Shown piece after piece: positions 24,746 to 44,465 of a DNA stretch of 44,465 nucleotides. The translations under genes and the position numbers were made by a program. Source of the stretch: a virus. How positions within the stretch are numbered: the stretch's first letter is position 1; each line of letters opens with the position of its first letter. The notes below the pieces were generated by a model. It was not told where the DNA came from. It saw nothing but the letters and a program-made list of their open reading frames with translations, and ran no database searches. Location: IMG/VR virus record IMGVR_UViG_3300011435_000008, positions 1-44,465 of that record; one strand, written 5' to 3'.

Positions 24746-24819
24746 AAACGCTAAAACGCTAAACGATGGACGAAACCCACCTTTACCTTTTCAGCGCATT
24801 TTTTAAACTTAATAATTAA

Positions 24820-26964: not shown

Positions 26965-26970
26965 CTTATA

Positions 26971-27195: not shown

Positions 27196-27196
27196 A

Positions 27197-27247: not shown

Positions 27248-27736
27248 ATGAAAATCGAAAAGTTAGAAAACGGGTACTACGAGTTACATATCTCTGAAAC
27301 TGAGCGCGTTAGCGGGTCTTTGGAGACTATGACAGAGGTACGCGATATTATCCTGGCCGAGCAAAAAGCAAAGACAGCCCGCCAGGTAGGTTACGGTGAA
27401 TTTTATTGCTGCCCCAGGTGCAAAGGCAAAGGGTACGGCAGCTGGTACGTAGAGAATGGCATGTGCTTTAAATGCGCTGGGCATGGTATAGTTAGAAAAG
27501 AGGACCCTAACGCACCCGTGCGGGTGGCCACTATCTACAAGGTACAGGTGGGCGCGTATGTTTACCAGTGTAATACCCGCGATAGTTTCAACCAGTTTGT
27601 AAACCCTGCCCTTTGGCTAGGCGACCGCGTAACCTTTCAACAATCAAAAAACGGTTTGCCCCTGGAGGGCGTAATAGTCGGCAAAATGAAAGGCGACAAA
27701 AAAAGTAAAAACTTCGACCAAATTTCTTTTATATGA
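27248..27736 (+). CDS. Zinc-finger protein with two DnaJ-type CxxCxGxG motifs (162 aa).
   Basis: CPRCKGKG and CFKCAGHG lie 20 aa apart. ATG follows the cassette; ATGA overlap with the polymerase gene. Confidence 0.65.
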   Translation: MKIEKLENGYYELHISETERVSGSLETMTEVRDIILAEQKAKTARQVGYGEFYCCPRCKGKGYGSWYVENGMCFKCAGHGIVRKEDPNAPVRVATIYKVQVGAYVYQCNTRDSFNQFVNPALWLGDRVTFQQSKNGLPLEGVIVGKMKGDKKSKNFDQISFI

Positions 27737-29676: not shown

Positions 29677-30188
29677 TGAATTTTAAAGATTTAACCGGGC
29701 TGGAGTTTGGCCGCCTAAAAGTTATTAAGCGTGTAGAGAACTCTAAAAACGGCCACTCGAAATGGCAATGCTTATGTAAATGCGGAAAAATTACGGTCGT
29801 TTTTGGCAGCAATTTAAAGAGGGGCCATACTACCAGCTGCGAGTGCCTAAACGATGAGGTAATAGAAAAACACGGCCTTTGGGGTACGTCTACGTATAAC
29901 ACCTGGCACGGCATGGTAGGCCGCTGCACGCACCAAAAAAACAAAAGGTATAAATATTATGGTGGGCGTGGTATAACGGTAGACCCAAACTGGTTAAACT
30001 TTAAAAATTTTCTAAATGATATGGGAGTACGACCCGCAAAGCATTTGACCCTCGATAGAATAAATAACGACCTGGGTTATTTTAAAGCAAATTGTAGGTG
30101 GGCGACCTGGGAGGAGCAACGAGCAAACCAGCGGCCCAGAACTAAATTAGAAAAACCGGGGTCTGTACCCTATGTTTATGAAAAATAA
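29676..30188 (+). CDS. HNH-like (homing-type) endonuclease.
   Basis: GRLKVIKR, WQCLCKCG...TSCEC, YYGGRGITV, and LTLDRINNDLGYFKANCRWAT. This is the free-standing phage family usually annotated HNH/AP2-like. TAATG overlap with polA. Confidence 0.55.
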   Translation: MNFKDLTGLEFGRLKVIKRVENSKNGHSKWQCLCKCGKITVVFGSNLKRGHTTSCECLNDEVIEKHGLWGTSTYNTWHGMVGRCTHQKNKRYKYYGGRGITVDPNWLNFKNFLNDMGVRPAKHLTLDRINNDLGYFKANCRWATWEEQRANQRPRTKLEKPGSVPYVYEK

Positions 30189-32924: not shown

Positions 32925-33296
32925 ATGAGACAAAAAGGCATGAATGAGAAAAAAAGAAAATTGACGTGGGTTTGGGATGATTATAACACCAAGTTTACGC
33001 CGGAGAGAGAACGTAAAATTATTAACGTGCTTTGCACCTTTGACCTTTACGTAGACCGGGGGCAAATTTGGGTCGGTAGCCCTTTACCGTGGGATAAGGG
33101 GGCGCGCTATGGAAATCTATTTTGGAATAATAGTGACGACGCTTGTTTGCGGTACCTTTTAGAGGTAGAACATGGAATTGAAAACCCGCGATACCGAAGC
33201 TGCTACCAAAACGCTTGGTTGGCTTTTATTGCCAACGGTAAAACAGAAAAAGAAATGACAAAAGTTTGGATTGGTTACAGAAACTATACTTACTGA
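32925..33296 (+). CDS. Hypothetical protein (123 aa).
   Basis: ATG ORF after the iteron array. Alternative ATG at 32940. Confidence 0.6.
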   Translation: MRQKGMNEKKRKLTWVWDDYNTKFTPERERKIINVLCTFDLYVDRGQIWVGSPLPWDKGARYGNLFWNNSDDACLRYLLEVEHGIENPRYRSCYQNAWLAFIANGKTEKEMTKVWIGYRNYTY

Positions 33297-33298
33297 TT

Positions 33299-33589
33299 AT
33301 GGAAAAAACACTAGAGAAACGGCTGCGCCTGGCCGTAGAGAAATTAGGCGGTAAGTGCCTTAAATTTGTCTCGCCTGGAAATGCTGGCGTACCTGACCGC
33401 ATGGTGCTGCTACGTGGCCGGGTCTGGTTTGTGGAAGTAAAGACCGAGCACGGCGTACTTTCAGCCCTCCAGGTGGCGGTGCACAAGATACTAGCCGCCA
33501 CGGGGCACGAGGTTAGGATAATTAAAAATGAGCAGGACCTTAGAAACTTATTACATGAGATTGCACCCGTACCAGGTCCAGGCCTGTAA
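33299..33589 (+). CDS. VRR-NUC domain nuclease.
   Basis: ATG at 33299 (MEKTLEKRL...) is preferred to the TTG at 33266. ...GVPDRMVLL...VWFVEVKTEHGVLSALQ... matches the VRR-NUC D...ExK core. Confidence 0.8.
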   Translation: MEKTLEKRLRLAVEKLGGKCLKFVSPGNAGVPDRMVLLRGRVWFVEVKTEHGVLSALQVAVHKILAATGHEVRIIKNEQDLRNLLHEIAPVPGPGL

Positions 33590-34904
33590 GCATATTATTG
33601 ATAACCCGGCAGCGGGTTTGTTCCTGAGCATGGGTACCGGGAAAACGGCAGCCACTTTAAAGGCCCTGGACCAGCTGCTAAATGAAACCTTTGAAATTAC
33701 CCGCGTGCTGGTAATAGCGCCCAAATTTGTGGCCCGTACGGTCTGGACGGCTGAGATAGCCAAGTGGTACCCGCACCTTAAGGCCTCGGTGGTCCTGGGC
33801 ACGGCACGCCAGAGGGCTGACGCACTACGCAAAAAGGCTGATATTTATATTATAAACCGGGAAAACGTGGACTGGCTGGTAAGTTTTTACGGCGCACGCT
33901 GGGACTTTGATATGGTTATCATAGACGAGTTAAGCAGCTTTAAGAGTGCCAGCGCCAGGCGGTTTAGGGCACTGCGCACGGTGCGGCCCTTAATTAAGCG
34001 TATAGTGGGTCTTACTGGTACGCCAGCGCCTAACGGCGTTTCAGACCTATGGCCGCAGCTTTACCTGTTGGACCAGGGCAAAAGGTTAGGTAAGACCTTA
34101 ACGGCCTTTAGAGAGGCTTATTTAACCCCAGATAAGCGCGACGCCTTTAGAGTTTTCAGCTATAAACCAAGAGAGGGGGCCGAAGCAGTGATTTATAAGA
34201 AAATAGCAGATATTTGTATAAGCATGAAAGCAGCCGATTATTTACAGCTACCTGGACGCATAGAGCACGAGGTGGTAATAGACCTGGAGCCAGAGACGCT
34301 GGCCGGGTATGAAAGTTTTGAACGCGACCAGGTAATGGCCCTGGAGGGTCAGGATATAACGGCGTTAAATGCTGGAGTATTAGCGGGCAAATTATTACAG
34401 TACAGTAATGGCGCGGTTTACGACGCTGAGCGCACGGTGCACAAGGTACACGACCAAAAGCTGGAGGCCCTGGAGGAACTAGTAGAGGAGGCCAGCGGCA
34501 ACCAGGTACTAATATTTTATAATTTTTTGCATGACCGCGACCGCATACTGGAGCGCCTGCCAGGGGCCAGACAGTTAAAAACCGCCCAGGATATAATAGA
34601 CTGGAACGCCGGAAAGGTAGGCGTTATGGTAGCGCACCCTGCCAGTGCAGGGCACGGGCTAAACCTCCAGGCTGGTGGTAATATCATTATATGGTTTGGG
34701 CTGCCCTGGAGCCTGGAACTATACGAACAGGCCAACGCCAGACTAGACAGACAGGGCCAGACCAGGCCCGTAGTTATTTTTAAATTGCTCTCAGGTGGTA
34801 CCCTGGACCAGTCGGTGGCCTCTGTCCTGGAAAGGAAAGCAGGCGGCCAGGCGGCACTACTTGAAGCAGTAAAAGCTAAAATTTATGAGTACAAACGGGC
34901 ATAA
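33528..34904 (+). CDS. SNF2/DEAD-like superfamily 2 helicase.
   Basis: Walker A LSMGTGKT, DExx IIDELSSF, C-terminal HPASAGHGLNLQ. Alternative start at 33555 (MRLHPYQ). Confidence 0.9.
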   Translation: MSRTLETYYMRLHPYQVQACKHIIDNPAAGLFLSMGTGKTAATLKALDQLLNETFEITRVLVIAPKFVARTVWTAEIAKWYPHLKASVVLGTARQRADALRKKADIYIINRENVDWLVSFYGARWDFDMVIIDELSSFKSASARRFRALRTVRPLIKRIVGLTGTPAPNGVSDLWPQLYLLDQGKRLGKTLTAFREAYLTPDKRDAFRVFSYKPREGAEAVIYKKIADICISMKAADYLQLPGRIEHEVVIDLEPETLAGYESFERDQVMALEGQDITALNAGVLAGKLLQYSNGAVYDAERTVHKVHDQKLEALEELVEEASGNQVLIFYNFLHDRDRILERLPGARQLKTAQDIIDWNAGKVGVMVAHPASAGHGLNLQAGGNIIIWFGLPWSLELYEQANARLDRQGQTRPVVIFKLLSGGTLDQSVASVLERKAGGQAALLEAVKAKIYEYKRA

Positions 34905-35463
34905 AGTTTTGGAGCAGGCTAAACTAACGCCAAAGCTGGAAAACTTTTGCCGCGAGTACCTGGTGGACTTTAACGCAACTCAGGCCGCTATTAGAGCGGG
35001 GTATAGCCGGGCTAGTGCGCACGTGCAGGCATTTGACCACTTAAAGAAACCTAGAGTTATTTCCAGGATAGCCGAGTTAAGGGCTGCGACGGCCAAAGAG
35101 TACAACATAACAAAGGAAAAGTTAATGCGTAACCTAATGGAAATAGCTGGCACCAGGCTGGAGGACATAACGGACCCAGTAACGGGTGCGGTGCTGCCGA
35201 TGCACGACTGGCCCGAACACATGAAGGGCACCGTTTCAGGTATTGACCTGGAAGAAATACGCGAGGGCCGGGGCAAAACCCGGCGCGTGGTCGGCTATAA
35301 TAAAAAAGTACGCCTTTGGGAAAAGACCAAAGCTATTGAGGTCCTCAACAAAATGCTAGGCTTTAACGCACCTGAAAAGGTCGCGCCAGTTACCCCAGAC
35401 GGCGAAGCCCTGGCCCCAGTCATTAACATTATAACCATAATGCCTAAGCAGGAAGATTTCTAA
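34885..35463 (+). CDS. terS: Terminase small subunit (Terminase_2-like).
   Basis: LTPKLENFCREYLVDFNATQAAIRAGYSRASAHVQAFDHLKKPRV matches the N-terminal HTH signature of this family. Confidence 0.8.
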   Translation: MSTNGHKVLEQAKLTPKLENFCREYLVDFNATQAAIRAGYSRASAHVQAFDHLKKPRVISRIAELRAATAKEYNITKEKLMRNLMEIAGTRLEDITDPVTGAVLPMHDWPEHMKGTVSGIDLEEIREGRGKTRRVVGYNKKVRLWEKTKAIEVLNKMLGFNAPEKVAPVTPDGEALAPVINIITIMPKQEDF

Positions 35464-35473: not shown

Positions 35474-35479
35474 CTTTTG

Positions 35480-35530
35480 TTTGGTGGTTACGCTAGCGTG
35501 CCCTATATTTGTGGAACAAAAGCAGAAAAT
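35480..35530 (+). promoter_or_regulatory. Promoter cassette copy 6 (-33 35480-35483, -7 35504-35511).
   Basis: TTTGGTGGTTACGCTAGCGTGCCCTATATTTGTGGAACAAAAGCAGAAAAT followed by ATG at 35531. Confidence 0.8.
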
Positions 35531-35719: not shown

Positions 35720-35865
35720 AAGCTGAAAAACTAGCCAGGTGCCGCGCCTATGCCCAGGCGCACCCTGGAGCCAAAGGTATTGAGGTGGCAAAGGCCATGA
35801 AAGTTTCCACCTACTTTGTAGAAAAGAACTGGTACGAAATATTTTTAGCCTGGAAAATAAAATAA
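35716..35865 (+). CDS. Hypothetical small protein (49 aa), possibly HTH-like.
   Basis: ATGA overlap with the upstream gene. Translates MKAEKLARCRAYAQAHPGAKGIEVAKAMKVSTYFVEKNWYEIFLAWKIK and ends right before cassette copy 7. Confidence 0.5.
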   Translation: MKAEKLARCRAYAQAHPGAKGIEVAKAMKVSTYFVEKNWYEIFLAWKIK

Positions 35866-35866
35866 A

Positions 35867-35917
35867 TTTGGTGGTTACGTACCCGCAACCTATATTTGTG
35901 GAACAAAAGCAGAAAAT
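35867..35917 (+). promoter_or_regulatory. Promoter cassette copy 7 (-33 35867-35870, -7 35891-35898).
   Basis: TTTGGTGGTTACGTACCCGCAACCTATATTTGTGGAACAAAAGCAGAAAAT followed by ATG at 35918. Confidence 0.8.
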
Positions 35918-36211: not shown

Positions 36212-36448
36212 ATGACCCTGAAAGCTAAGAAAGCCAACGCCACCAAACTAGTAAACAAGGCCCGCACTACCCTGGGCTACGACATTCTCGACGCCATAGA
36301 CCTGACCCTGGGCAATATACACTACCAGATACCAGAGCAGCGGGCCTGGTTTGAGACGCTTATAACTGCGCGCCTGGCAGACAGCATAAACCATTTAAAT
36401 TTTTTCGAGGACCAGAGAAAAAAACTTTTGGTAGTTACCGCGGGGTAA
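36212..36448 (+). CDS. Hypothetical protein (78 aa).
   Basis: ATG ORF. Confidence 0.6.
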   Translation: MTLKAKKANATKLVNKARTTLGYDILDAIDLTLGNIHYQIPEQRAWFETLITARLADSINHLNFFEDQRKKLLVVTAG

Positions 36449-36518
36449 CTATCTTTACGGGGTCCAGGTAAGTGGACGCAAAACGGGGCCAAACCATACC
36501 ATTATAGCCTTAACCTTT

Positions 36519-36578
36519 TTGCCGCTGGATATTGCGGCACCTCTTACCAGGTGCCAATATTGAAGGCGGCAATTTTTT
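36519..36578 (+). terminator. Long, imperfect ~20-bp hairpin followed by T6. Terminator or regulatory structure ahead of the glycan cassette.
   Basis: The outer TTGCCGC/GCGGCAA, middle ATATT/AATAT and inner GGCACCT/AGGTGCC segments pair around the loop cttacc, followed by TTTTTT. Confidence 0.7.
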
Positions 36579-36582
36579 ATTT

Positions 36583-37233
36583 ATGCAACTCAGTATTATT
36601 TCAGCCATTATAGGGGGCATAGACCAGCCTAAGACACTACCCACGCAGCTGGGCATTAACGGCCACGACCTGAGCCACTACCTGGTAACGACCGTGGAGG
36701 GCCTGAACGAGGGACGCACTGACCGGGAAAAGGCCCTGTTTTACAAGTGCCAGCCGCACCGTAATTTCCCTGGGGACGTTTACATTTGGGTAGATGGTAA
36801 GGTACAGGTGCAGGCCTCAGACTTTGCCACCCAGGTACTGGCAGCCCTCCAGGGTAGCCACCTGGCGGTCCTTAAGCATGGCAGCCGGGCCTGTATATAC
36901 GAGGAGGTAACGTACATAGAGCAGCAAATAGCCAGGGGTAGTAAGTACCTGGCCACCCGCTACGCAGCCAAACCAATACGCGCCCAGGTAGAGGCCTACC
37001 GCCAGATAGGCTACCCTGCTGGAGCCGGGTTATACGACTGCTGCATAGTGGCGGCACGTAACACGCCAGAGGCGCAGGACGTACTTAACTACTGGTGGGC
37101 CGAGGTACGCGATTATAACGCATTTGACCAGACCGCGCTACCCTTTGCCGCCTGGAGGCTAGGGGTAGAAATAAAGCCTATAACTTTGAGGCCTGGGACC
37201 ATTAGCCACGTACCGCACACACTACTGAAATGA
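36583..37233 (+). CDS. DUF616 / TOD1-MUCI70-like glycosyltransferase-like protein.
   Basis: The track start 36532 (TTG) lies inside the hairpin; ATG 36583 (MQLSIISAIIGGIDQP...) is preferred. ...FPGDVYIWVDGKVQV..., ...CIYEE... and ...FDQTALPFAAW... resemble DUF616 blocks. Confidence 0.5.
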   Translation: MQLSIISAIIGGIDQPKTLPTQLGINGHDLSHYLVTTVEGLNEGRTDREKALFYKCQPHRNFPGDVYIWVDGKVQVQASDFATQVLAALQGSHLAVLKHGSRACIYEEVTYIEQQIARGSKYLATRYAAKPIRAQVEAYRQIGYPAGAGLYDCCIVAARNTPEAQDVLNYWWAEVRDYNAFDQTALPFAAWRLGVEIKPITLRPGTISHVPHTLLK

Positions 37234-37406
37234 AAAAGATTTTTATATTCTATCTGGCCTGGGTGGCCATAATTTACACCTTACTGGCCCTATGGTTTAA
37301 CGCCTTAAACCCCTGGGCCTGGGACTGGCCAGGGCAGTATTTATTTATCGTAATAGGTTTAATTATTGGGGCCGTCCTGGCAGTAACAAACAGTTTTAGA
37401 CAATGA
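37230..37406 (+). CDS. Small membrane protein (58 aa, 2 TM).
   Basis: ATGA overlap. Translates MKKIFIFYLAWVAIIYTLLALWFNALNPWAWDWPGQYLFIVIGLIIGAVLAVTNSFRQ. Its stop overlaps the next ATG. Confidence 0.5.
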   Translation: MKKIFIFYLAWVAIIYTLLALWFNALNPWAWDWPGQYLFIVIGLIIGAVLAVTNSFRQ

Positions 37407-37585
37407 CATACCAAAACATACAAGGCTTTATATTTTGTGGCGGAGCCGCAAACGCCAGCCAGCTATACCGTATAAGAAAGGCACATATTAACGCTACCCA
37501 AATGCTCTGGCTGACCACGGGCCACGTGGTCCAGGACGGCAGGATTTATAATAAAGAAACACCTATATTAATATTTTTGAACTAA
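37403..37585 (+). CDS. Hypothetical protein (60 aa).
   Basis: ATG ORF, translationally coupled on both sides. Confidence 0.5.
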   Translation: MTYQNIQGFIFCGGAANASQLYRIRKAHINATQMLWLTTGHVVQDGRIYNKETPILIFLN

Positions 37586-37761
37586 TGAGAGCGCAAATAA
37601 TAGGACGACAGCACCCGCACCTGGTTTACGTCTATGGCCGTACTCTACCCGTTTTTATGGTACGCCTAAAGGAAAAGGACAGACCACCGCACCCAGACGG
37701 GCTGACAGCAATATTTAAAATTAAATACCATGCGTCTACCAAAACCACCAGGGCTAAGTAA
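37585..37761 (+). CDS. Possible small protein (58 aa).
   Basis: ATG at 37585 overlaps the upstream stop. Translates MRAQIIGRQHPHLVYVYGRTLPVFMVRLKEKDRPPHPDGLTAIFKIKYHASTKTTRAK. A competing 45-aa ORF (37728-37865) with a C-terminal TM overlaps it. Confidence 0.35.
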   Translation: MRAQIIGRQHPHLVYVYGRTLPVFMVRLKEKDRPPHPDGLTAIFKIKYHASTKTTRAK

Positions 37762-37869
37762 GGAGGCCAGCGACCGCTGGGACAAAAGCGACCGCATAAA
37801 CGCCAGGGTAACTGGCGTGGGTATGGTCGTAGTAATAGGGTTTTTTCTCACATTAATATTTTTAAAACT

Positions 37870-38547
37870 ATGCTGAGTGTCTGCATACCAACGTATGAGC
37901 AGCGAGGCGTCGGGCCTTTCCTGTTTAATATGCTGCTTAAAACGATTGAAAACCAGCGTTATAGCAGGCCTTATGAAATAATAGTTTCAGATAATAGCAG
38001 TAACTCGCTGATATTCAGGGAAATAAAGAACTTTCCCCACTTACCAATAGTTTACTATCAAAACCCGGTGCAGGGTGCAGCTGAGAACCTTAACTTTTCC
38101 CTGGACCATGCCACAGGCGACCGGGTAAAAATAATGTGCCAGGACGACGTTTTTATGGTACGCGACGCGCTGCAACAATTCGACCAGGGCCTGGACCAGG
38201 CGGGCTGGGCCATTTCAAACGCCGTGCAGATAAACGCCAGCGGCATAAAGACAGGACGCAGCCGGGCCAGGTACGTGCACGGCAATTTTGATAAAAATAC
38301 GGTGGGCATGCCCTCAGTCATAGCCTTTAGAAAAAACCCTTTACGCTTTGACACCAGGCTACGGACCTTTTGCGACCTGTATTTTTATTACCAGCTTTAC
38401 GAGTTGTACGGGCCGCCCTTTGTCATACAGGACTTTCCAGTGGGCCAGAGGTACCACCCGGCCAGCCAGTCGCGTAACCAGCCACCCAGCCACCAGGCAG
38501 ACAAAAATTTTTTACTTTCGCATGGCTTAATAAAGTGCAATGTTTAA
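37870..38547 (+). CDS. Family 2 (GT-A fold) glycosyltransferase.
   Basis: N-terminal LSVCIPTYEQ...YEIIVSDNSS and the DxD-type CQDDVF are typical of GT2. Confidence 0.7.
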   Translation: MLSVCIPTYEQRGVGPFLFNMLLKTIENQRYSRPYEIIVSDNSSNSLIFREIKNFPHLPIVYYQNPVQGAAENLNFSLDHATGDRVKIMCQDDVFMVRDALQQFDQGLDQAGWAISNAVQINASGIKTGRSRARYVHGNFDKNTVGMPSVIAFRKNPLRFDTRLRTFCDLYFYYQLYELYGPPFVIQDFPVGQRYHPASQSRNQPPSHQADKNFLLSHGLIKCNV

Positions 38548-39757
38548 AAATCATACCAGCTGCCGCGTGTGCAATAGCCCAAACCTGGAGCAATACCTGG
38601 ACCTGGGTTTAATGCCCCTATCAAATAACCTCCTGGACGACCCAGGCGAAATAGCGCCACGCTACCCACTGCGCGTTATGCTTTGCCCACGCTGCGGCCT
38701 TAGCCAGCTATCCATAGTCATAGACCCGCAAACCCTTTTCGGCCACTATGTTTATCGCTCGTCCATTAGCCAGTCGTTTAAAGACCATTGCAGAGAAATG
38801 GCCCACGAACTGGCGGCCACCTACCAGCTGGGGCCAGATAGTTTTCATATAGACATAGCCGGAAACGACGGGGCGCTGCTGGTGGAGTTTCGCCAGGTGC
38901 TGCACCACCGTACGCTCTCGGTGGACCCGGCAGCAAACCTGGCCCCTATCTGCGAGGCCCAGGGTATAAGAGCCTACCAGGCATTTTGGGGCCTGGAGGC
39001 GGCAGAGCACCTGGCTGCTACCGGGTGGCCGAGGGCGGACCTAATAACGGCTACCAATGTTTTTGCCCACGTGGACGACGTTAAGGAGTTTTTAACCGCC
39101 GTGCGCCAGACCCTGGCACCTGGCGGCGTACTGGTCCTGGAGTTTCCGTACCTCCTGGACTTTATAGACAAGGGAGAGTTCGACACCGTATATTTTGAGC
39201 ACCTCAGCTATTTTTCCATAGTGCCCCTGGCCTACTTGTGTATACAGTGCGGCCTGGAACTGGTGGAGGTAAGCCACCAGGATATACACGGCGGCAGCGT
39301 GCGCTGCCACGTCCAGCACAAGGGCCAGCGGCCCCAGGTAGGCGTGCAGGAGTTTTTGCGCCGGGAAATCCACGGCGGCTATGCAGATATAAAAACCTAT
39401 TACGCCTGGGCCAGGAAGGTAGACAAAATAGTGGTCGGGTTTAATAAGCTACTGGACCACCTTAAGGGCGCGAAGATTTACGGTTTTGCAGCCTCGGCCA
39501 AAGGTAATACGCTGCTAAACGTGGCAGGGGTAACAGTAAAGCAGATACCTTTCATAGTGGACCAGACCCCGGAAAAGGTGGGCAAGTTTTCACCTGGTAC
39601 GGGTATACCTATAATTGACTTACCCGCCATGATAGACGACCCGCCAGAGTACCTGGTGCTACTGGCCTGGAACTTTGCCGAGGAGGTCGTAGCTAAGACG
39701 CGCCGGGCTGGCTACCTGGGGCACTACATTATGCCATTAACTGCACAAATAATATGA
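38540..39757 (+). CDS. SAM-dependent methyltransferase of the NDP-hexose C-methyltransferase family (Zn-ribbon + class I MTase + C-terminal domain).
   Basis: CRVCNS...CPRCGLSQL zinc ribbon; SAM motif HIDIAGNDGALL; C-terminal ...GFAASAKGNTLLNVAG...VDQTPEKVGKFSPGTGIPI..., as in TylCIII-like sugar C-methyltransferases. Confidence 0.7.
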   Translation: MFKNHTSCRVCNSPNLEQYLDLGLMPLSNNLLDDPGEIAPRYPLRVMLCPRCGLSQLSIVIDPQTLFGHYVYRSSISQSFKDHCREMAHELAATYQLGPDSFHIDIAGNDGALLVEFRQVLHHRTLSVDPAANLAPICEAQGIRAYQAFWGLEAAEHLAATGWPRADLITATNVFAHVDDVKEFLTAVRQTLAPGGVLVLEFPYLLDFIDKGEFDTVYFEHLSYFSIVPLAYLCIQCGLELVEVSHQDIHGGSVRCHVQHKGQRPQVGVQEFLRREIHGGYADIKTYYAWARKVDKIVVGFNKLLDHLKGAKIYGFAASAKGNTLLNVAGVTVKQIPFIVDQTPEKVGKFSPGTGIPIIDLPAMIDDPPEYLVLLAWNFAEEVVAKTRRAGYLGHYIMPLTAQII

Positions 39758-39951
39758 CAGAAAACACTAATTTTTTACAGGACCAGGCCGAAATAGTAGA
39801 AAAACTGGGCGAAATTGACCAGTTATTGCAACTTTTCGAGGATAAGTACGGCGTAACGCCAATAATTGAGAACGCACGCAAGGACCGCAGCGACGGCGAC
39901 GAGTGGAGCGGGGCCGAGCTGCGCCTGGTAATATCCAAATATGAAAGATGA
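39754..39951 (+). CDS. Hypothetical acidic protein (65 aa).
   Basis: ATGA overlaps on both sides. Confidence 0.55.
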   Translation: MTENTNFLQDQAEIVEKLGEIDQLLQLFEDKYGVTPIIENARKDRSDGDEWSGAELRLVISKYER

Positions 39952-40595
39952 GGCTAGTAATACCGTACAGGCTGGCCGGGGACGGCCTGGAGTTAAAGTA
40001 CGCTATACGCTCTATGGTCCGCCATTTTAACGCACTTACCGGGGTGCTACTGATAGGCGACCGCCCAGAGTGGTACGACGGGGACCATATAGCCAGGGCG
40101 GACTTCGAGGGCGAGAAAGAGAAAAGTATGCAGATAAAGGTAATGGCCTGCCAGGACCCGGTTTTTTTATACTCTAACGACGACTACTACGCACTGGAGG
40201 ACTTTGGCATAGACCTACCTAACTACCACGACACGACATGCGAGGACCTGGCAGTGCGCCACCAGCGTAAAGATTATAGGCGCATGTATGAAAACTGCGG
40301 CCCTGGGTGGCTAAATTATGATATTCATGTACCAATGATTATGCGCCGCGACCGTTTCCTGGCTACCTTTGAGGCTATGGACGGACAGACACCAATAAAA
40401 ACCACCTACGCAAATGGACTGGTCCCTGGGCCGTACCTGGCCGACTGTAAAGTGCGGGGGGAGCACAACCTGGGCGAACTGGAGGACCTGGTGAAAGATA
40501 GGCCGTTTTTTTCCACCCACGAGAGCGTTATAAACCACGACTTTTTGTATTTTATAAATAAACTCTACCCCAATGCAAGTAAATGGGAACGCTGA
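39948..40595 (+). CDS. Stealth-CR2-like putative sugar(-phosphate) transferase.
   Basis: ELKYAIRSMVRHFNALTGVLLIGDRPEWY resembles the Stealth CR2 block (ELRYSLRS...P.W). Also has YSNDDYY and DIHVP. Weak call, from memory only. Confidence 0.35.
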   Translation: MRLVIPYRLAGDGLELKYAIRSMVRHFNALTGVLLIGDRPEWYDGDHIARADFEGEKEKSMQIKVMACQDPVFLYSNDDYYALEDFGIDLPNYHDTTCEDLAVRHQRKDYRRMYENCGPGWLNYDIHVPMIMRRDRFLATFEAMDGQTPIKTTYANGLVPGPYLADCKVRGEHNLGELEDLVKDRPFFSTHESVINHDFLYFINKLYPNASKWER

Positions 40596-41979
40596 GGAGA
40601 GGCCCGTAATAGAAATGCGCGTTACCAGTGTATTTAACCGTAACTGGGACGCCGTGCACGCCGTAAATCCAGACGGCACCAGGCGGTATAAGTACATAGT
40701 AAATAAAGGGTCCAGCCGCTCGTCTAAAACCTACTCGTTAATAGATTGTTTTGATACCCTGGCACGCAAAGAGAAAAATAAACGCTTTACTATCTGGCGC
40801 GATACAAAAGTGGATTGTGTAGATACGGTCTGGAACGACCTGGAAAAGCGTTTAATGGCTACGGGCCGCTGGCAGTTCCAGAATAAATTTAACGCCACAA
40901 AGACCTACCTACGCTACGCTACCGGGTCCAGGGTGGAGACGCACGGGGCCGACGACAGCGTGAGCGTGCACGGGCTGAACCAGAACGCGGCCTGGTTAAA
41001 TGAGCCATACAAAATAAGTAAGGACGTTTTCGACCAGATAGACCAGCGTACAGAGGACTTTATTTTTATAGACTGGAACCCACGCCAGGCGCACTGGGTA
41101 GAGGACCTGGAGAGAGACGAGCGCACCATAGTTATAAACTCGACCTTTAGGGACAATCCATTTTGCCCAGAGGCCCAGCGGGAGAAAATCCTAAGCTACC
41201 AGACCATAAAGGACAGCCACGCAGTGCTCCACAAGTTACTAACGCCTGGGGAGGCTGAGACGTACAGCTGCGTAGCAAACCCAAAGGGCCTGGCGGGTAA
41301 GTATACCACCGAACTGGCACGCTGTCAAAATAACGAGTATAAACGCAGCGCAAACGCCTATAATTGGAGCGTCTACGGCCTGGGCCTGAGAGCCGAAAAG
41401 CCAAACCGTATTTTTTCCTGGTCTGAAATTTCCCTGGCTGAGTACCTGGCCCTGGACGTGCCACTTTATTACGGGTGCGACTGGGGAATTTGCGACCCCT
41501 GGGCTATTAGTGAGGTGAAGTACTACGACGGTGGTCTGTACGTCAGAGAACTTAATTATAGCAGCGAAAACACGCTGCGCGATAAAATGACCTTAACGGA
41601 CCGGGAGCAGATACTGGGGGCCGAGGAGGGTATAGTAAACTGGCTCTTTAGCCACCTGGCGGTCCCTTTCACCAGTGAAATTATTTGCGACCCAAACCGA
41701 CGGCTTAAAATACTGGCGCTGCGCCAGGCTGGCTGGGAGTACGCCATAGCTGCCCCAAAGCCTCCAGGGTCCATAATAGACGGCATTAGCCTGCTATCTA
41801 ATCTAAGGGTATACTTTACCGCTGACAGCGTAAACGTGCGCCAGGAGCAGGAGAATTACAGCCGCAAGGTGGACCGCTACGGCATAGTGCTGGAGGAGCC
41901 AGAGGACCTGGACAACCATCACATGGACGCCGTACGCTACGTGGCCACGTATCTGCAAACCCAGGGCGTTATAAAATAG
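40573..41979 (+). CDS. terL: Terminase large subunit.
   Basis: Walker-A-like NKGSSRSSKT near the N-terminus; the C-terminal acidic block LDNHHMDAVRYV is typical of the terminase nuclease domain. Alternative start at 40615. Confidence 0.85.
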   Translation: MQVNGNAEERPVIEMRVTSVFNRNWDAVHAVNPDGTRRYKYIVNKGSSRSSKTYSLIDCFDTLARKEKNKRFTIWRDTKVDCVDTVWNDLEKRLMATGRWQFQNKFNATKTYLRYATGSRVETHGADDSVSVHGLNQNAAWLNEPYKISKDVFDQIDQRTEDFIFIDWNPRQAHWVEDLERDERTIVINSTFRDNPFCPEAQREKILSYQTIKDSHAVLHKLLTPGEAETYSCVANPKGLAGKYTTELARCQNNEYKRSANAYNWSVYGLGLRAEKPNRIFSWSEISLAEYLALDVPLYYGCDWGICDPWAISEVKYYDGGLYVRELNYSSENTLRDKMTLTDREQILGAEEGIVNWLFSHLAVPFTSEIICDPNRRLKILALRQAGWEYAIAAPKPPGSIIDGISLLSNLRVYFTADSVNVRQEQENYSRKVDRYGIVLEEPEDLDNHHMDAVRYVATYLQTQGVIK

Positions 41980-42002
41980 TGTTGCTTTTTCTTACTTTCC
42001 AC

Positions 42003-42032
42003 GGCCCCGGCGTTTCTACCTGGGGCCTTTTT
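42003..42032 (+). terminator. Intrinsic terminator (CGTTTCTAC-loop family), first of five in tandem.
   Basis: GGCCCC-ggcgtttctacct-GGGGCC followed by TTTTT. Confidence 0.75.
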
Positions 42033-42091
42033 CGTATATTGTGGCGGGCCTTTGTCTCTACTTTGGCCGGAAAAATTTGTTTGTTGTTTGC

Positions 42092-42123
42092 GCCAGCCTC
42101 TCGTCCAGGCTGGCCTTTTTTTT
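42092..42123 (+). terminator. Intrinsic terminator.
   Basis: GCCAGCC-tctcgtcca-GGCTGGC followed by c and T8. Confidence 0.85.
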
Positions 42124-42182
42124 GCTGCTACTTTATACCAAGTTTTGATAACAGTACGACTATTTTTGAAGGTGAAAACCTC

Positions 42183-42217
42183 GGCCCGCCGTTTTTACGC
42201 TGCGGGCCTTTATCTTT
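42183..42217 (+). terminator. Intrinsic terminator-like hairpin.
   Basis: GGCCCGC-cgtttttacgct-GCGGGCC followed by tttatcttt. Confidence 0.6.
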
Positions 42218-42253
42218 GTATGGTAACAACTAGAGCCTTTTTATTTAACTCTA

Positions 42254-42285
42254 GGGCCGGACGTTTCCACGTTTGGCCCTTTTTT
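42254..42285 (+). terminator. Intrinsic terminator-like hairpin.
   Basis: GGGCC-ggacgtttccacgttt-GGCCC followed by T6. Confidence 0.65.
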
Positions 42286-42333
42286 ATTATATTTAAATCC
42301 TAGTTTTTCAGAGGGTATACGGATAAAGAAATT

Positions 42334-42363
42334 ACCGGGTATTTTTATGCCTGGTTTTTTTTT
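42334..42363 (+). terminator. Hairpin plus a long T-run immediately before cassette copy 8.
   Basis: ACCGGG-tatttttatg-CCTGGT (one G-T pair) followed by T9. Confidence 0.55.
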
Positions 42364-42370
42364 ATTTTTA

Positions 42371-42406
42371 TTTGGTGGTTACGATACCGCACCCTATATT
42401 TGCACC
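42371..42406 (+). promoter_or_regulatory. Promoter cassette copy 8, short-leader form (-33 42371-42374, -7 42395-42402, ATG 4 nt later).
   Basis: TTTGGTGGTTACGATACCGCACCCTATATTTGCACC followed by ATG at 42407. Confidence 0.75.
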
Positions 42407-42790
42407 ATGACAAACAACTGGACCCAGCCCTACAAACCCAGCACCCGCGCCCTGGTAACGACTAAGCTAGTGCCCTTTATCTGCACTGGCGGCAACGTCT
42501 ACACTATTAAAAACGCGGTTACTGCCCGCTCGTTTACTTACAAGGCCGTAGCGCCAAAGGACGGCCAGACGGACATAGTATTTATACACGCCTTATTTGG
42601 TCCAGCCATAGGCCGCGGCCAGTTTAATTATATCGGCTTTGTCCGTGGTGGCCAGTTCTACTGGGGCGGTGCTAAAGCTGCGGCCAGCCAGGACGACCTT
42701 AAGGTGGTAGCCTGGGCGCACGTTTTTAACCAGCTTATGGACGGTAAGCAGCACCCGGCGCTGGAAATTTGGAACGAGTACGGGAAGTAA
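42407..42790 (+). CDS. Hypothetical early protein (127 aa).
   Basis: ATG after the cassette. The track start 42347 translates the T-run and the cassette. Confidence 0.7.
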   Translation: MTNNWTQPYKPSTRALVTTKLVPFICTGGNVYTIKNAVTARSFTYKAVAPKDGQTDIVFIHALFGPAIGRGQFNYIGFVRGGQFYWGGAKAAASQDDLKVVAWAHVFNQLMDGKQHPALEIWNEYGK

Positions 42791-42843
42791 CCAGAATAAC
42801 CATAACGCCACCAAAAAATAACTTTGTATTTTTAAAGTTTTAT

Positions 42844-42894
42844 TTTGGTGGTTACGATACCGCACCCGATATTTGCAATCTAAACAACAAACAA
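42844..42894 (+). promoter_or_regulatory. Promoter cassette copy 9 (-33 42844-42847; -7 GATATTTG at 42868-42875).
   Basis: TTTGGTGGTTACGATACCGCACCCGATATTTGCAATCTAAACAACAAACAA followed by ATG at 42895. Confidence 0.7.
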
Positions 42895-43197
42895 ATGAAT
42901 TTAGCAGTAGCTACCGAAATCTTAAACCAGCTGGGTGGTAAAATGTTTATCTTAATGACTGGCAGTAAGAACTTTACCAGCGATAAGTGCGCCCTATCTT
43001 TCCACCTGGCTAAAAATGCCAGCCGCGCAAAATATTGCCGTATTGAGTTAATGCCTAACGACACCTATACCGTAACTTTCCTGGCCAGGGCTGACAAAAA
43101 TTTTAATTTCGCTGAGGTCGCAAAATTTGAGGGCGCATACTGCGACCAGCTGCAAAATATTTTTTCTGGCGTAACAGGCCTCTATACTAAACTTTAA
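42895..43197 (+). CDS. Hypothetical early protein (100 aa).
   Basis: ATG after the cassette leader (MNLAVATEILNQLGGKMFILMTGSKNF...). Confidence 0.7.
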   Translation: MNLAVATEILNQLGGKMFILMTGSKNFTSDKCALSFHLAKNASRAKYCRIELMPNDTYTVTFLARADKNFNFAEVAKFEGAYCDQLQNIFSGVTGLYTKL

Positions 43198-43203
43198 TAA
43201 ATT

Positions 43204-43446
43204 ATGAACTTTTCAGACCGCATTTGCATTAGATACCGCCTTTTTAGTAATAACTGGGAAATTAAACTTTGCCAGGAGGGCCTCGGTTTTGCCGTGCTCC
43301 TGGCCCAGGACGGGAACCAGACCACTAAACGCTTTTACGTTAGCCTGGAGGAGGCGGACCGCTACTACGCTAAGGTTTGCCGGGTCCTGGCCCAGGCGGC
43401 GGACCGCGCCATTTTTGCCTCCACCGCTAAATATAATACGAAATGA
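43204..43446 (+). CDS. Hypothetical protein (80 aa).
   Basis: ATG ORF. Confidence 0.6.
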   Translation: MNFSDRICIRYRLFSNNWEIKLCQEGLGFAVLLAQDGNQTTKRFYVSLEEADRYYAKVCRVLAQAADRAIFASTAKYNTK

Positions 43447-43649
43447 AAAAAAGCTATACCATGCGCATAAATGAGGAGGTCCTGGCCCAGCTGGAGGTCG
43501 AGGCCGTGCGCCAGAACCGTACCGTAGCTAACCTGGTGGACACTATCCTAAAAAAATATTTTGCCGAAAATTTGGTGGTTACGTTACCGCAACCTATATT
43601 TGTGGAACAAAAGCAAACAAATGAAAAAAATCACCCGCACCACAGTTAA
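43443..43649 (+). CDS. Ribbon-helix-helix (CopG/Arc-like) DNA-binding protein whose 3' end runs through promoter cassette copy 10.
   Basis: MRINEEVLAQLEVEAVRQNRTVANLVDTILKKYF has the strand-helix-helix pattern of RHH repressors. The C-terminal LVVTLPQPIFVEQKQTN is the translated cassette. Confidence 0.5.
   Translation: MKKSYTMRINEEVLAQLEVEAVRQNRTVANLVDTILKKYFAENLVVTLPQPIFVEQKQTNEKNHPHHS
43571..43620 (+). promoter_or_regulatory. Promoter cassette copy 10 (-33 43571-43574, -7 43595-43602), embedded in the 3' end of the RHH ORF.
   Basis: TTTGGTGGTTACGTTACCGCAACCTATATTTGTGGAACAAAAGCAAACAA followed by ATG at 43621. Confidence 0.8.
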
Positions 43650-43914
43650 GACCTTCATTAAGAAAAACCAGGCCGACCTTTACATTAACGTAAAAAGCGC
43701 ATTTTCCGGCATGACCGACGGCTGCGAGTGCGTCCACGGCGGTTTTAAAATGGCCTACGGCACGCTAGCAAACCTGGACGAGACGCTGGGCGTTGAAGGT
43801 GCCTGGTTTGTAGGCTCCAGCCGCGACTACTTCACGGCCTACGAGGACAGTATTTTCACAGGCATAGAGGTTTATAACAGCTGCGGCAAGTTTATACTGG
43901 CCGTTAAAAAATAA
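43621..43914 (+). CDS. Hypothetical early protein (97 aa).
   Basis: ATG after the cassette leader (MKKITRTTVKTFIKKNQADLY...). Confidence 0.7.
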   Translation: MKKITRTTVKTFIKKNQADLYINVKSAFSGMTDGCECVHGGFKMAYGTLANLDETLGVEGAWFVGSSRDYFTAYEDSIFTGIEVYNSCGKFILAVKK

Positions 43915-43925
43915 TTTACTAACCA

Positions 43926-43950
43926 GGGCTACCCGGCCAACGGGTGGCCC
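43926..43950 (+). terminator. 10-bp hairpin GGGCTACCCG-gccaa-CGGGTGGCCC with a weak T tract.
   Basis: Read directly; one G-T pair; followed by ttaatt. Confidence 0.4.
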
Positions 43951-43963
43951 TTAATTCAAACCC

Positions 43964-44305
43964 ATGACAAGAGAGGAGCAAAAAATCAACAGTCAGTTTA
44001 ATGAAATGCTACGCCGCCACGGCCACGCACTGGTCGAGGAAACGCCAGCGCCCAGGTATGCCAACGACCGCCTATACGGGGCGCACCGTTTTGGCCTGGA
44101 CCCGGCCCTGGTAGTTGAGTACCACAGGGGCCAGTACTACGACCGCATACTGCTAAGGACCCGCGCAGCTGCCGACCAGGTAACGGCCAGGGTAAAGCAT
44201 GGCACGGTAGAGGGCGGCCTGCTAAAGGGCATGATACTGGGCCGCCAGGTGCAAAGGCCTGACCCGGACCGCCAGGAGGCTGTATTTATTGAGGTCTATG
44301 TATAA
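43964..44305 (+). CDS. Hypothetical protein (113 aa).
   Basis: ATG ORF. Its stop overlaps the start of the junction-spanning gene. Confidence 0.65.
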   Translation: MTREEQKINSQFNEMLRRHGHALVEETPAPRYANDRLYGAHRFGLDPALVVEYHRGQYYDRILLRTRAAADQVTARVKHGTVEGGLLKGMILGRQVQRPDPDRQEAVFIEVYV

Positions 44306-44465
44306 GCTGACCGTGCAAATAAGGGCCAACGGGGCACGCACTACGCCGCGCTACCACTACCGGGTCGTGGACCTGGAGACGGGGCGCGTCGTAAGTGAGC
44401 GTAAAAGTAATAGGCGCTACGTAGCTGCCACCCTGGACAGCCGCCACTACTTTAGCCGGGTGGAC
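44298..44465 (+). CDS. 5' part of a small early protein that spans the circular junction and continues as 124-213 of the left end. Hypothetical; paralog of 277..537.
   Basis: ATG at 44298 overlaps the stop of the upstream ORF (ATGTATAA). The frame stays open into the terminal repeat and joins the frame of ORF 25..213. Translation MYKLTVQIRANGARTTPRYHYRVVDLETGRVVSERKSNRRY... Confidence 0.7.
   Translation, partial: MYKLTVQIRANGARTTPRYHYRVVDLETGRVVSERKSNRRYVAATLDSRHYFSRVD
44343..44465. repeat. Terminal direct repeat, right copy.
   Basis: Identical to 1-123. Confidence 0.95.

Follow-up and report, generated by a model that had tools for sequence, protein, structure and literature searches.

We analysed a window of 44,465 nucleotides (the whole stretch of viral DNA under study), which represents an essentially complete phage genome of 44 kb. 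Ahead of the large terminase gene (terL) it carries a cassette encoding four soluble enzymes and several small proteins. The features of the region are as follows.

34885..35463 (+), terS, small terminase (phrog_51, E 1.1e-31; PF03592 Terminase_2 on the identical gene of L004)
36422..36477 (+), repeated promoter-plus-leader element (TTTGGTAGTTACC...TATCTTTA), the most degenerate of 12 copies
36519..36581 (+), long imperfect hairpin with a T6 run, terminator-like, in the operon leader, closely followed by the first cassette ATG
36583..37233 (+), TOD1/MUCI70 (DUF616)-type GT-A glycosyltransferase, 216 aa, soluble (PF04765, TOD1_MUCI70, E 2.6e-9)
37230..37406 (+), 58-aa hydrophobic protein (KD19 2.39)
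37403..37585 (+), 60-aa protein (homologue in L006, E 7.9e-22)
37585..37761 (+), 58-aa basic protein, pI 10.8 (phmmer matches in L006, L009, L016, L017 and L018)
37730..37876 (+), 48-aa ORF with a hydrophobic C-terminus (KD19 2.58; 32-nt overlap with the preceding ORF)
37870..38547 (+), GT2 glycosyltransferase, 225 aa, without membrane segment (PF00535, Glycos_transf_2, E 1.9e-8)
38540..39757 (+), NDP-4-keto-hexose 3-C-methyltransferase (TylC3/TcaB9/MtmC family) with an N-terminal Zn ribbon (Pfam Methyltransf_13/23/14)
39754..39951 (+), 65-aa acidic protein, pI 4.4 (homologue in L006, E 7.8e-13)
39948..40595 (+), compact Stealth-fold enzyme, 215 aa, predicted hexose-1-phosphate transferase (overlaps terL by 23 nt)
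40573..41979 (+), terL, large terminase, final gene of the unit (PF04466, E 2.8e-10; PHROG terminase large subunit families)
42028..42365 (+), cluster of 3-4 intrinsic-terminator-like hairpins at the end of the cassette-terL unit

Organisation of the cassette-terL unit

All cassette elements named in the initial annotation were located where it had placed them. Between 36583 and 41979 the genes overlap at every junction and the cassette continues directly into terL; the initial description of most junctions as ATGA was slightly too strong, since this applies to four of nine, the remaining overlaps being 1, 32, 7, 8 and 23 nt. The block had also been placed between terS and terL. It does run into terL but is not contiguous with terS, as four small ORFs and two strong copies of the promoter lie in the gap; terS itself closes the replication operon, and the SNF2 helicase gene before it overlaps its start. 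The unit is delimited by the leader hairpin on the 5' side and by the terminators after terL, and the block is most likely a glycan-biosynthesis island co-transcribed with terL.

The sole promoter copy ahead of the operon is the most degenerate one, which may possibly serve as a weak promoter of the cassette-terL unit, and the structural genes share this promoter type. Hence the timing of cassette expression cannot be read from the sequence, a point that we count against the virion as target of the glycan (see below). The leader hairpin (36519-36572), already noticed in the initial annotation together with its T6 run, has an RNA minimum free energy of -27.7 kcal/mol (z = -3.0 against shuffles) and is followed by AATTTTTTATTT and then by the ATG at 36583. 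It is kept in relatives: a homologous hairpin with T-run and ATTT(T)ATG is found in L006, L017/L018 and L009, where the stem changes preserve pairing, and analogous hairpins in L012, L021 and L024.

The host is probably a member of the Bacteroidota, to judge from the 12 copies of the TTTG...TAnnTTTG-type promoter in the phage genome and from the closest cultured relatives by terL, which are phages of Flavobacterium, Bacteroides and Cellulophaga. The phage encodes a tape-measure-sized ORF of 909 aa, and scans of ORFs of 100 aa or longer, which took in all those of 200 aa and above, gave no match to a tail-sheath family. These observations agree with the earlier designation as a Bacteroidota siphophage.

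Enzymes and small proteins of the cassette

The identities given initially to the four enzymes stand on Pfam and PDB matches and, for the Stealth-like protein, on fold and family profile; none of the four contains a membrane segment (maximum KD19 <=1.57). The TOD1_MUCI70 match of the first glycosyltransferase exceeds the Pfam cut-off, and its AF2 model (pLDDT 94.0) finds retaining GT-A enzymes (UGGT, XXYLT1, GT6) as best Foldseek matches; several of its 24 homologues lie on phage-sized contigs of ~44 kb. The GT2 protein (KD19 0.64) shows weak NCBIfam matches to PglI and EpsD. The C-methyltransferase aligns over residues 6-390 with PDB entries 4rv9 (MtmC, 6.3e-71) and 3ndi (TcaB9, 9.7e-62). All four of its Zn cysteines, its Y-x-E-H motif and a His aligning with that of TcaB9 are conserved, and it is an intact NDP-hexose 3-C-methyltransferase, an enzyme class that no paper found by full-text search connects with phages.

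The Stealth-CR2-like call was the hardest assignment, and here fold, profile and family-level Pfam matches agree. The AF2 model (pLDDT 96.7) has CpsY (1.6e-8) and GNPTAB (9e-7) as best Foldseek matches (TMq 0.58-0.66), profile A1 matched only Stealth proteins among PDB sequences, and Pfam Stealth_CR2 (PF11380) is matched by 119 of 138 family representatives, the window's own protein falling below detection in Pfam. The protein corresponds to phrog_7999, labelled 'unknown function' in PHROGs, and its compact family is large (about 3,900 clusters at 50% identity) and unannotated. All family loci examined lie on phage or viral contigs, and a pattern scan of 185,579 species-representative genomes found no relative.

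Among the small ORFs, the hydrophobic protein at 37230..37406 has no homologue in relatives beyond near-identical contigs. The ORF at 37730..37876 has none in relatives, was passed over by gene callers and is uncalled in L004; its 32-nt overlap and the missing call make it doubtful as a gene. The slot of the 65-aa acidic protein is also filled by a small ORF in L010.

Conservation of the Stealth-terL pair

A terS-sized ORF adjoins terL in 59 of the 67 terL relatives and a Stealth-like gene is found in only one of them; relative to this set the placement is unusual, as had been claimed, but it is recurrent rather than unique. Within the window's clade the Stealth-like gene is always immediately 5' of terL, even beside terL proteins that phmmer with the window's terL does not recognise (Walker A present). 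The genes upstream of it are swapped among relatives, with Methyltransf_24/23/21, GT2, GT1-like, SDR epimerase/dehydratase, polysaccharide deacetylase and HAD proteins occurring there. From these comparisons the Stealth-like gene is the conserved anchor of the island, and a fixed Stealth-terL anchor combined with swapped tailoring genes is the pattern expected for a surface glycan under diversifying selection.

In distant phages, glycosyltransferases and methyltransferases dominate the neighbours of compact Stealth genes, which lie within or bordering virion modules. For instance, gp22 of Streptomyces phage TurkishDelight has the major tail protein on one side and the head-tail adaptor on the other, with a 678-aa glycosyltransferase one gene away, and gp6 of Mycobacterium phage Fionnbharth is found two genes ahead of terS-terL-portal. 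In other phages, homologues of the C-methyltransferase (~55% identity) are paired with a GT2 enzyme and placed either immediately ahead of terL or between portal and MuF. The compact Stealth family spans phages of unrelated hosts, Actinobacteria included, which argues for a phage-intrinsic acceptor.

Proposed target of the glycan

The most likely function of the cassette, with a probability that we place slightly short of even, would be to glycosylate virion proteins, its genes being expressed together with terL as a single unit. We infer the identity of the sugar, the order of steps and the acceptor. A host 4,6-dehydratase pathway, e.g. via RmlA/RmlB, would provide NDP-4-keto-6-deoxyhexose, from which the phage C-methyltransferase would make a sugar nucleotide methylated at C-3. 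Reduction of its 4-keto group might then fall to the C-methyltransferase itself, as with the bifunctional MtmC, or to a reductase of the host. The three soluble transferases would then assemble a short glycan on a cytoplasmic acceptor, to which the compact Stealth enzyme would contribute a sugar-1-phosphate, with further sugars coming from the TOD1-type GT-A and GT2 enzymes. The acceptor would most likely be a virion structural protein, so that progeny would be coated with a methylated, phosphodiester-containing glycan. A precedent comes from mycobacteriophages, whose capsid and tail tube are glycosylated by phage glycosyltransferases plus an O-methyltransferase according to PMC11600133 and PMC12363180 (citing Freeman 2023), which also describe cluster O phages such as Corndog as lytic.

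Several observations count against a virion target. Relatives with and without the cassette could not be told apart by a Ser/Thr-rich tail or insertion in their capsid and tail-tube sequences, and the last 60 capsid residues of L104, which has no cassette, closely match those of the window. No 4-ketoreductase is encoded in the phage, and none of the phages whose virion glycosylation is proven (Che8, Corndog, Myrna) is among the 40 listed of 50 cultured-phage matches to the compact Stealth family. Furthermore, GT2 enzymes that lack membrane segments can also use acceptors that are lipid-linked, on the inner face of the membrane. It is conceivable, though unlikely, that the enzymes modify precursors of host envelope glycans (undecaprenyl-linked CPS, LPS or O-glycan intermediates) on the cytoplasmic side of the membrane, and the altered surface of the infected cell would then block superinfection or keep progeny off debris. 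Bacterial capsule and EPS loci are a typical setting for Stealth, GT2 (given the weak PglI/EpsD similarity) and DUF616 proteins, the block contains two small hydrophobic ORFs, its variable gene content resembles serotype loci, and glycan-hydrolase-like domains in the tail region suggest a polysaccharide receptor. However, the hydrophobic ORFs are not kept in relatives, GtrA/GtrB/GtrC-like multi-pass membrane proteins and a flippase are absent, and classical seroconversion would be without its setting, as the scanned ORFs included neither an integrase nor any other lysogeny gene. The compact Stealth family also occurs, often within virion modules, in phages of Actinobacteria with their very different envelopes, and the genome scan recovered no relative of the Stealth-like protein.

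Glycosylation of phage DNA, as in T-even phages or 5mYOX/ThyS-linked DNA-glycan clusters, would couple modification to packaging through the terminase adjacency. DNA-modifying glycosyltransferases of GT-A/GT-B fold are diverse and some lie close to terminase genes (bioRxiv 10.1101/2023.12.21.572611); the island adjoins terL in several lineages, and one relative has an N6/N4 DNA methylase within its cassette. Nevertheless, the scanned ORFs of at least 100 aa did not include any ThyA/ThyX-like hydroxymethylase, TET/5mYOX or DNA methyltransferase, and the 86 neighbours in distant loci gave only one ThyX and one dNMP kinase. To our knowledge, every characterised DNA glycosylation requires a hydroxymethylated base (hmC/hmU) from a ThyA-like hydroxymethylase or from a C5-MTase with TET/5mYOX, enzymes absent from this essentially complete genome, and we know of no DNA counterpart of a sugar C-methyltransferase or sugar-phosphate transferase, which counts further against DNA. 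The initial conclusion that DNA is probably not the target is supported, and we consider DNA glycosylation very improbable.

The enzymes might also act elsewhere, on a non-structural phage or host protein, on a small molecule or by diverting the host nucleotide-sugar pools for takeover or anti-defence. Fionnbharth-type mycobacteriophages have a lone compact Stealth gene with no annotated glycosyltransferase nearby, so a full glycan pathway is not required by the family, and the 65-aa acidic and 58-aa basic proteins are conserved yet unexplained. Three transferases with a sugar-tailoring enzyme imply oligosaccharide assembly rather than a sink, and glycosyltransferases and methyltransferases are strongly enriched among neighbours across the Stealth family, which makes such a role rather improbable. 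Taken together, the evidence leans to the virion, or to some other phage-intrinsic target, rather than to seroconversion, host envelope and DNA being less likely targets than the virion.

Comparison with known systems

The phage Stealth enzyme shares its fold with M. tuberculosis CpsY (8j2n) and GNPTAB (7s05/7s6n/9bgf; Foldseek E 1.6e-8 to 1e-5), and it has the CR2 motif ELRYxxRS...NDD, an H-x-P at the CR3 position and a C-terminal YPxxSxYE resembling CR4. Unlike known Stealth proteins it comprises only 215 aa, without accessory or spacer domains or a membrane anchor. The Neisseria capsule polymerases CsaB and CsxA are hexose-1-phosphate transferases of this family. The phage C-methyltransferase aligns over its full length with MtmC, TcaB9 and KijD1 (4rv9, 3ndi, 5t64) and has their Zn ribbon, SAM domain, C-terminal domain and catalytic Tyr/Glu/His. 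Those enzymes come from actinomycete antibiotic deoxysugar pathways in which dehydratases and reductases are encoded as well, whereas the phage has no such partners and its substrate must thus be host-supplied.

Chlorovirus PBCV-1, a eukaryotic giant virus with enzymes unrelated to those of the cassette, builds an atypical methylated glycan on its major capsid protein with cytoplasmic virus-encoded glycosyltransferases and a sugar methyltransferase. The Gtr-type and related seroconversion modules of temperate phages alter a glycan through a phage GT2-family enzyme, but they comprise GtrA/GtrB/GtrC membrane proteins, are located close to attP/integrase and are expressed during lysogeny; the cassette shares none of these features. 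T4 alpha/beta-GT and the 5mYOX/ThyS-associated clusters combine glycosyltransferases with sugar-tailoring enzymes, some near terminase (bioRxiv 10.1101/2023.12.21.572611); such DNA glycan hypermodification needs a hydroxymethyl-pyrimidine-generating enzyme, which the window does not have. The Che8/Corndog/Myrna system works in a different host phylum and, according to the papers cited above, uses other enzyme families and an O-methyltransferase in place of the NDP-sugar C-methyltransferase; no Stealth-type enzyme was detected in it among the 40 listed of 50 family matches, whereas the cassette has one, and the island-terL fusion is a feature of the window, whose virion target is our proposal. 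Like the cassette, this system consists, according to the same papers, of phage-encoded tandem glycosyltransferases and a methyltransferase, and it acts on capsid and tail-tube subunits and puts methylated sugars on the particle.

Organization of the cassette and the packaging region

The window represents an essentially complete phage contig of ~44.5 kb, the same sequence being present in an ENA assembly as a 44,483-bp contig, and its convincing genes all lie on the + strand. The initial annotation had described a sugar-modification cassette between terS and terL; its coordinates proved accurate and all of its elements, the ORFs, the hairpin and the overlaps, were confirmed.

Main features of the terS-terL region
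34885-35463, + strand, terS (phrog_51, 1.1e-31), end of the replication operon, upstream of the cassette
36519-36581, leader hairpin and T-run
36583-37233, + strand, TOD1/MUCI70-type glycosyltransferase (GT)
37870-38547, + strand, GT2 glycosyltransferase
38540-39757, + strand, C-methyltransferase
39948-40595, + strand, compact Stealth-like enzyme (215 aa)
40573-41979, + strand, terL

Not a single intergenic base occurs between position 36583 and the stop codon of terL at 41979, the nine junctions being overlaps of 4 nt (ATGA, four times), 1, 32, 7, 8 and 23 nt, and terL is followed by three to four hairpins resembling terminators (42028-42365). Since the cassette and terL run on without gaps and are closed by these hairpins, they form one compact transcription unit. 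The small terminase gene belongs elsewhere. It ends a replication operon encoding a DUF2800 nuclease, an Enc34-type SSB, PolA, HNH, a VapE primase-helicase and an SNF2 helicase, and its first 20 nt overlap the 3' end of the SNF2 helicase gene (34885-34904), which implies that the small terminase is expressed with the replication operon, separately from terL. It is set apart from the cassette by four small ORFs and by two copies of the promoter. The GC content of the block (0.47-0.53) equals that of the remaining genome and recent foreign acquisition was therefore rejected.

Two further features of the layout were noted. Of the ORFs 29676-30188 and 33266-33589, the first is the HNH endonuclease gene, with PolA on one side and the VapE primase-helicase on the other, and the second is VRR-NUC/endonuclease-like and precedes the SNF2 helicase; in relatives the HNH slot holds a Dam methylase or other genes instead. 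In addition, terL and portal are kept apart by a ~5.9-kb stretch (41980-44465 plus 1-3420) of ~20 small ORFs without database matches, arranged in clusters with a promoter copy each, whereas in most relatives portal directly follows terL.

A compact Stealth-family enzyme

The 215-aa protein encoded directly upstream of terL had no direct match in Pfam, NCBIfam or PDB sequences and belongs to phrog_7999, annotated as "unknown function"; its identity emerged only from a profile of the family, a structural model and a scan of the family members. The profile of 31 homologues retrieved from the PDB Stealth proteins alone (CpsY, GNPTAB and fly GNPT), aligning over their CR2 and weakly also over the C-terminal YPxxSxYE. 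The CR2 motif (ELRYSLRS ... NDD) is present, with E15, L16, R21, S22 and D78/D79 invariant or nearly so, while H127-x-P129 resembles CR3 and YPxxSxYE resembles CR4. The AF2 model reached a pLDDT of 96.7 and its 12 best Foldseek matches in the PDB were all Stealth structures (CpsY, GNPTAB and Drosophila GNPT; E 1.6e-8 to 1.9e-5, TMq 0.58-0.66). Finally, among 138 scanned sequences (137 family representatives and the window protein), PF11380 (Stealth_CR2) was matched by 119, with a best E of 2.8e-12, PF17103 (Stealth_CR4) by five, and the CR1 and CR3 models by none. Thus three independent lines, profile, model and family scan, identify the protein at the level of sequence and predicted fold as a compact Stealth-family enzyme. 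An exhaustive profile search extended the family to 3,912 clusters at 50% identity, and nearly all of the best 150 of these have lengths of 200-250 aa. Compact Stealth enzymes are a large, unannotated and apparently undescribed family, whose members were confined to contigs of phages or viruses at the loci examined.

The C-methyltransferase and the other cassette proteins

The C-methyltransferase belongs to the NDP-hexose 3-C-methyltransferases of the TylC3/TcaB9/MtmC type; it aligns end to end with the crystal structures of MtmC (4rv9, 6.3e-71), TcaB9 (3ndi, 9.7e-62) and KijD1, and shows the architecture of a Zn ribbon (PF08421, 5.9e-17), a SAM domain (PF13489, 2.1e-12) and a C-terminal domain (PF08484, 8.5e-38). 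Compared with 4rv9 and 3ndi, the Zn ligands C8, C11, C49 and C52 are kept, as are the Y-F-E-H motif and the active-site His in the alignment; the catalytic roles of the Tyr, Glu and His residues were reportedly established in TcaB9 mutant studies. The longer start at 38540 is correct, because the shorter call drops the first Zn cysteine. The family scan of the ORFs detected neither a 4,6-dehydratase nor a nucleotidyltransferase in the window, so the substrate NDP-4-keto-6-deoxyhexose would be supplied by the host; an SDR epimerase/dehydratase occurs in the cassette of one relative. Homologues ~55% identical are also phage-borne, each beside a GT2 of ~400 aa, in phages with different terminases.

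GT2 and C-methyltransferase pairs in other phage loci
L160, 7787-10260, and L161, 7754-10269: one pair between portal and MuF, the other just before terL

A full-text literature search for C-methyltransferase and phage gave no phage-related paper, and an NDP-sugar C-methyltransferase in phages is apparently undescribed. The window points to a phage-borne C-methyl sugar chemistry.

The first cassette protein matched PF04765 with 37.2 bits (cut-off 21.4) over profile positions 150-290 of 314, so that the match is confined to the C-terminal half of the profile. Its AF2 model (pLDDT 94.0) has a GT-A fold, with the retaining glycosyltransferases UGGT, XXYLT1 and GT6 as nearest structures. A search of PDB sequences with the TOD1-like family profile returned DARPin matches only, which were judged spurious. 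The GT2 enzyme matched PF00535 above the cut-off (E 1.9e-8), carries VSDNSS and CQDDVF as acidic DxD-type candidates and has no membrane segment. Profile searches and Foldseek thus upheld the GT-A, GT2, C-methyltransferase and Stealth-family identities. The 58-aa basic, 60-aa and 65-aa acidic proteins of the cassette recur in relatives, whereas two hydrophobic ORFs do not.

Promoter copies and the leader hairpin

A ~45-nt element, TTTGGTGGTTACG-N-CCTATATTTGTGGAACAAAAGCAAACAA, occurs in 12 copies in the window.

Copies of the ~45-nt element
220-275, + strand
1156-1211, + strand
2792-2847, + strand
24703-24758, + strand
26966-27021, + strand
27192-27247, + strand
35475-35530, + strand
35862-35917, + strand
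36422-36477, + strand, before the cassette-terL unit, most degenerate of the 12
42366-42421, + strand
42839-42894, + strand
43566-43621, + strand

The looser consensus TTTG-N18-21-TAnnTTTG was observed nine times against 0.93 expected. The element, which agrees with the Bacteroidota -33/-7 promoter consensus, looks like a promoter of this type followed by a conserved leader, and small-ORF clusters follow most of the copies. When translated, the element yields a spurious peptide "FGGY..APYIC" in several of the listed ORFs. Dating of expression by promoter type was rejected, since the cassette and the structural genes all lie behind variants of one promoter.

The cassette is preceded by a long imperfect hairpin at 36519-36572 (RNA MFE -27.7 kcal/mol, z = -3.0), followed by AATTTTTTATTT and then by the ATG at 36583, so that hairpin and T-run end a few bases before the first cassette start. 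Homologous hairpins with a T-run, their stems altered yet pairing, lie directly before the first cassette ATG in four related loci, and three more loci (L012, L021 and L024) have analogous hairpins at this position.

Homologues of the leader hairpin in related phage loci
L006, ~6390-6460
L017, ~300-374
L018, ~3915-3990
L009, ~6526-6600

In a six-sequence covariation analysis the basal stem alone aligned and the distant sequences spoiled the alignment; the conservation is treated as qualitative. A terminator-like hairpin in the leader suggests that expression of the unit may rely on read-through or antitermination, and it may be a regulated terminator.

Host and lifestyle

Start codons lack Shine-Dalgarno sequences, and the nearest cultured terL proteins (at most 38% identity) belong to Flavobacterium, Bacteroides, Phocaeicola and Cellulophaga phages; no cultured phage resembled the window at the DNA level. 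A siphovirus is indicated by a 909-aa ORF of tape-measure size and by a putative tail-tube protein of 318 aa (8487-9443), the capsid protein being encoded at 5606-7075; none of the proteins matched a tail-sheath family. Neither an integrase nor Gtr-like membrane proteins turned up in a scan that took in every ORF of 200 aa or longer and the majority of those reaching 100 aa. The same scan, complete for ORFs of 200 aa or longer, gave no enzyme generating 5hmC or 5hmU (ThyA-like hydroxymethylase, C5-MTase with TET/5mYOX) and no DNA-methylating enzyme; the 208-aa ORFs 2164-2790 and 27110-27736 had no family match. A pattern scan of GTDB genomes with the compact Stealth alignment A1 detected no prophage copies, and no host could be read from prophages. 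The distal tail proteins 19626-21371 (weak ArabFuran-catal) and 21986-23779 (DUF4832 and PKD) carry glycan-hydrolase-like domains, which suggest a polysaccharide receptor.

Conservation of the cassette in other phages

Close relatives (59-78% protein identity) retain this block, and more distant clade members keep the order terS, variable genes, Stealth-like gene, terL. A Pfam census of 48 variable cassette proteins revealed Methyltransf_24, 23 and 21, further GT2, GT1-like, SDR epimerase/dehydratase, polysaccharide deacetylase, HAD hydrolase, O-methyltransferase and homing endonucleases. In IMG/VR the Stealth-like gene lay immediately 5' of terL, or nearly so, in 15 of 60 assessable loci, including every assessable locus above 30% identity; in L020, L021, L027 and L035 the adjoining terL was missed by phmmer with the window terL, yet a Walker A motif is present. 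At the other 45 loci the commonest neighbours were GT2 (12), Methyltransf_24 (7), GT1/GT4 (5), TOD1 (3) and other glycosyltransferase or methyltransferase families. When relatives were instead collected by terL (67 assessable, 32-59% identity), a terS-sized ORF abutted terL in 59 and a Stealth-like gene was present in just one, implying that the island is an accessory insertion marking one sub-lineage. The position in the packaging module, already singled out as unusual in the initial annotation, is thus borne out.

Family members were also found in 50 cultured actinophages, annotated as "hypothetical protein" among the matches listed, and two of these genes were checked with the family HMM (TurkishDelight gp22, 118 bits; Cece gp215, 124 bits).

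Compact Stealth genes in cultured actinophages
Fionnbharth (Mycobacterium phage, L162), 1273-1959
TurkishDelight (Streptomyces phage, L013), 6986-7696
Cece (Microbacterium phage, L014), 5968-6654

TurkishDelight gp22 is flanked by the major tail protein and head-tail adaptor genes, with a 678-aa glycosyltransferase one gene away, and Fionnbharth gp6 stands alone, two genes ahead of terS-terL-portal. In phages of both Bacteroidota and Actinobacteria, compact Stealth genes are repeatedly located at the borders of packaging or virion modules. A literature search for Stealth and phage returned nothing relevant, and the recurrent tie of the island to the packaging module appears to be undescribed.

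Probable acceptor and proposed mechanism

The block is almost certainly a glycan-building cassette. As its acceptor we tentatively favour virion proteins, because the unit, whose enzymes are soluble, is coupled to terL both physically and in translation, and because no lysogeny genes were found among the ORFs scanned. Furthermore, the Stealth family spans phages of hosts with unrelated envelopes, its genes repeatedly lie within head and tail modules or at their borders, and a constant anchor gene combined with exchangeable tailoring genes is the expectation for an exposed glycan. A precedent also exists in mycobacteriophages, whose virions are glycosylated by phage glycosyltransferases and a methyltransferase (PMC11600133, PMC12363180). 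Against virion proteins stands the comparison of cassette-positive with cassette-negative relatives, in which capsid and tail-tube proteins showed no acceptor signature in length, Ser/Thr content or C-termini; nor does promoter type set the cassette unit apart from other genes. Modification of host envelope precursors, the other acceptor proposed in the initial annotation, is considered rather unlikely. Still more doubtful is another cytoplasmic target or diversion of the sugar-nucleotide pool. Glycosylation of DNA is very improbable, since described phage DNA-glycan clusters depend on a hydroxymethyl-base pathway (bioRxiv 10.1101/2023.12.21.572611), of which no enzyme was found among the ORFs scanned here. 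The initial annotation stands in its observation and is partly supported in its interpretation.

By analogy with characterized relatives, a host NDP-4-keto-6-deoxyhexose would be C-methylated by the phage enzyme, as family biochemistry suggests, and the 4-keto group would be reduced by the same enzyme, as in MtmC, which is bifunctional in C-methylation and 4-keto reduction, or by a host reductase. The Stealth enzyme would add a sugar-1-phosphate, the activity expected of its family being transfer of this group from a UDP-sugar to an acceptor hydroxyl, and the two GT-A enzymes would add further sugars. In the most specific form of this model, an unlikely one as a whole, the Stealth enzyme would phosphoglycosylate Ser, Thr or Tyr of virion proteins, and variable glycosyltransferases would extend this primer and cap it with a 3-C-methyl-6-deoxyhexose. 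A wilder and speculative variant has the Stealth enzyme capping terminase-generated DNA ends with sugar phosphate.

If phosphoglycosylation of the virion were true, this would be the first known virus particle with a phosphodiester-linked glycan and would provide a function for a large unannotated family (~3,900 clusters at 50% identity). Hexose-1-phosphate transferase is a testable annotation for PHROG 7999 and for thousands of phage proteins now called "hypothetical", some of them encoded by well-studied mycobacteriophages such as Fionnbharth. To our knowledge, virion glycosylation has so far been documented just for a few actinobacteriophages, in which it alters antibody recognition. If phages of Bacteroidota, a phylum common in samples from the gut and the environment, had a second system built from unrelated enzymes, this would suggest that coats of glycan are widespread on phage particles, which would bear on phage therapy, on phage-mucus and phage-immune interactions and on host-range studies.

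Comparison with known systems

The system belongs to phage-encoded glycan modification, already known as such. Gtr-type seroconversion modules consist of a GtrA flippase, a membrane-anchored GtrB and a multi-pass GtrC and lie near the integrase of temperate phages; in contrast, the four cassette enzymes have no membrane segments and no integrase was found among the ORFs scanned.
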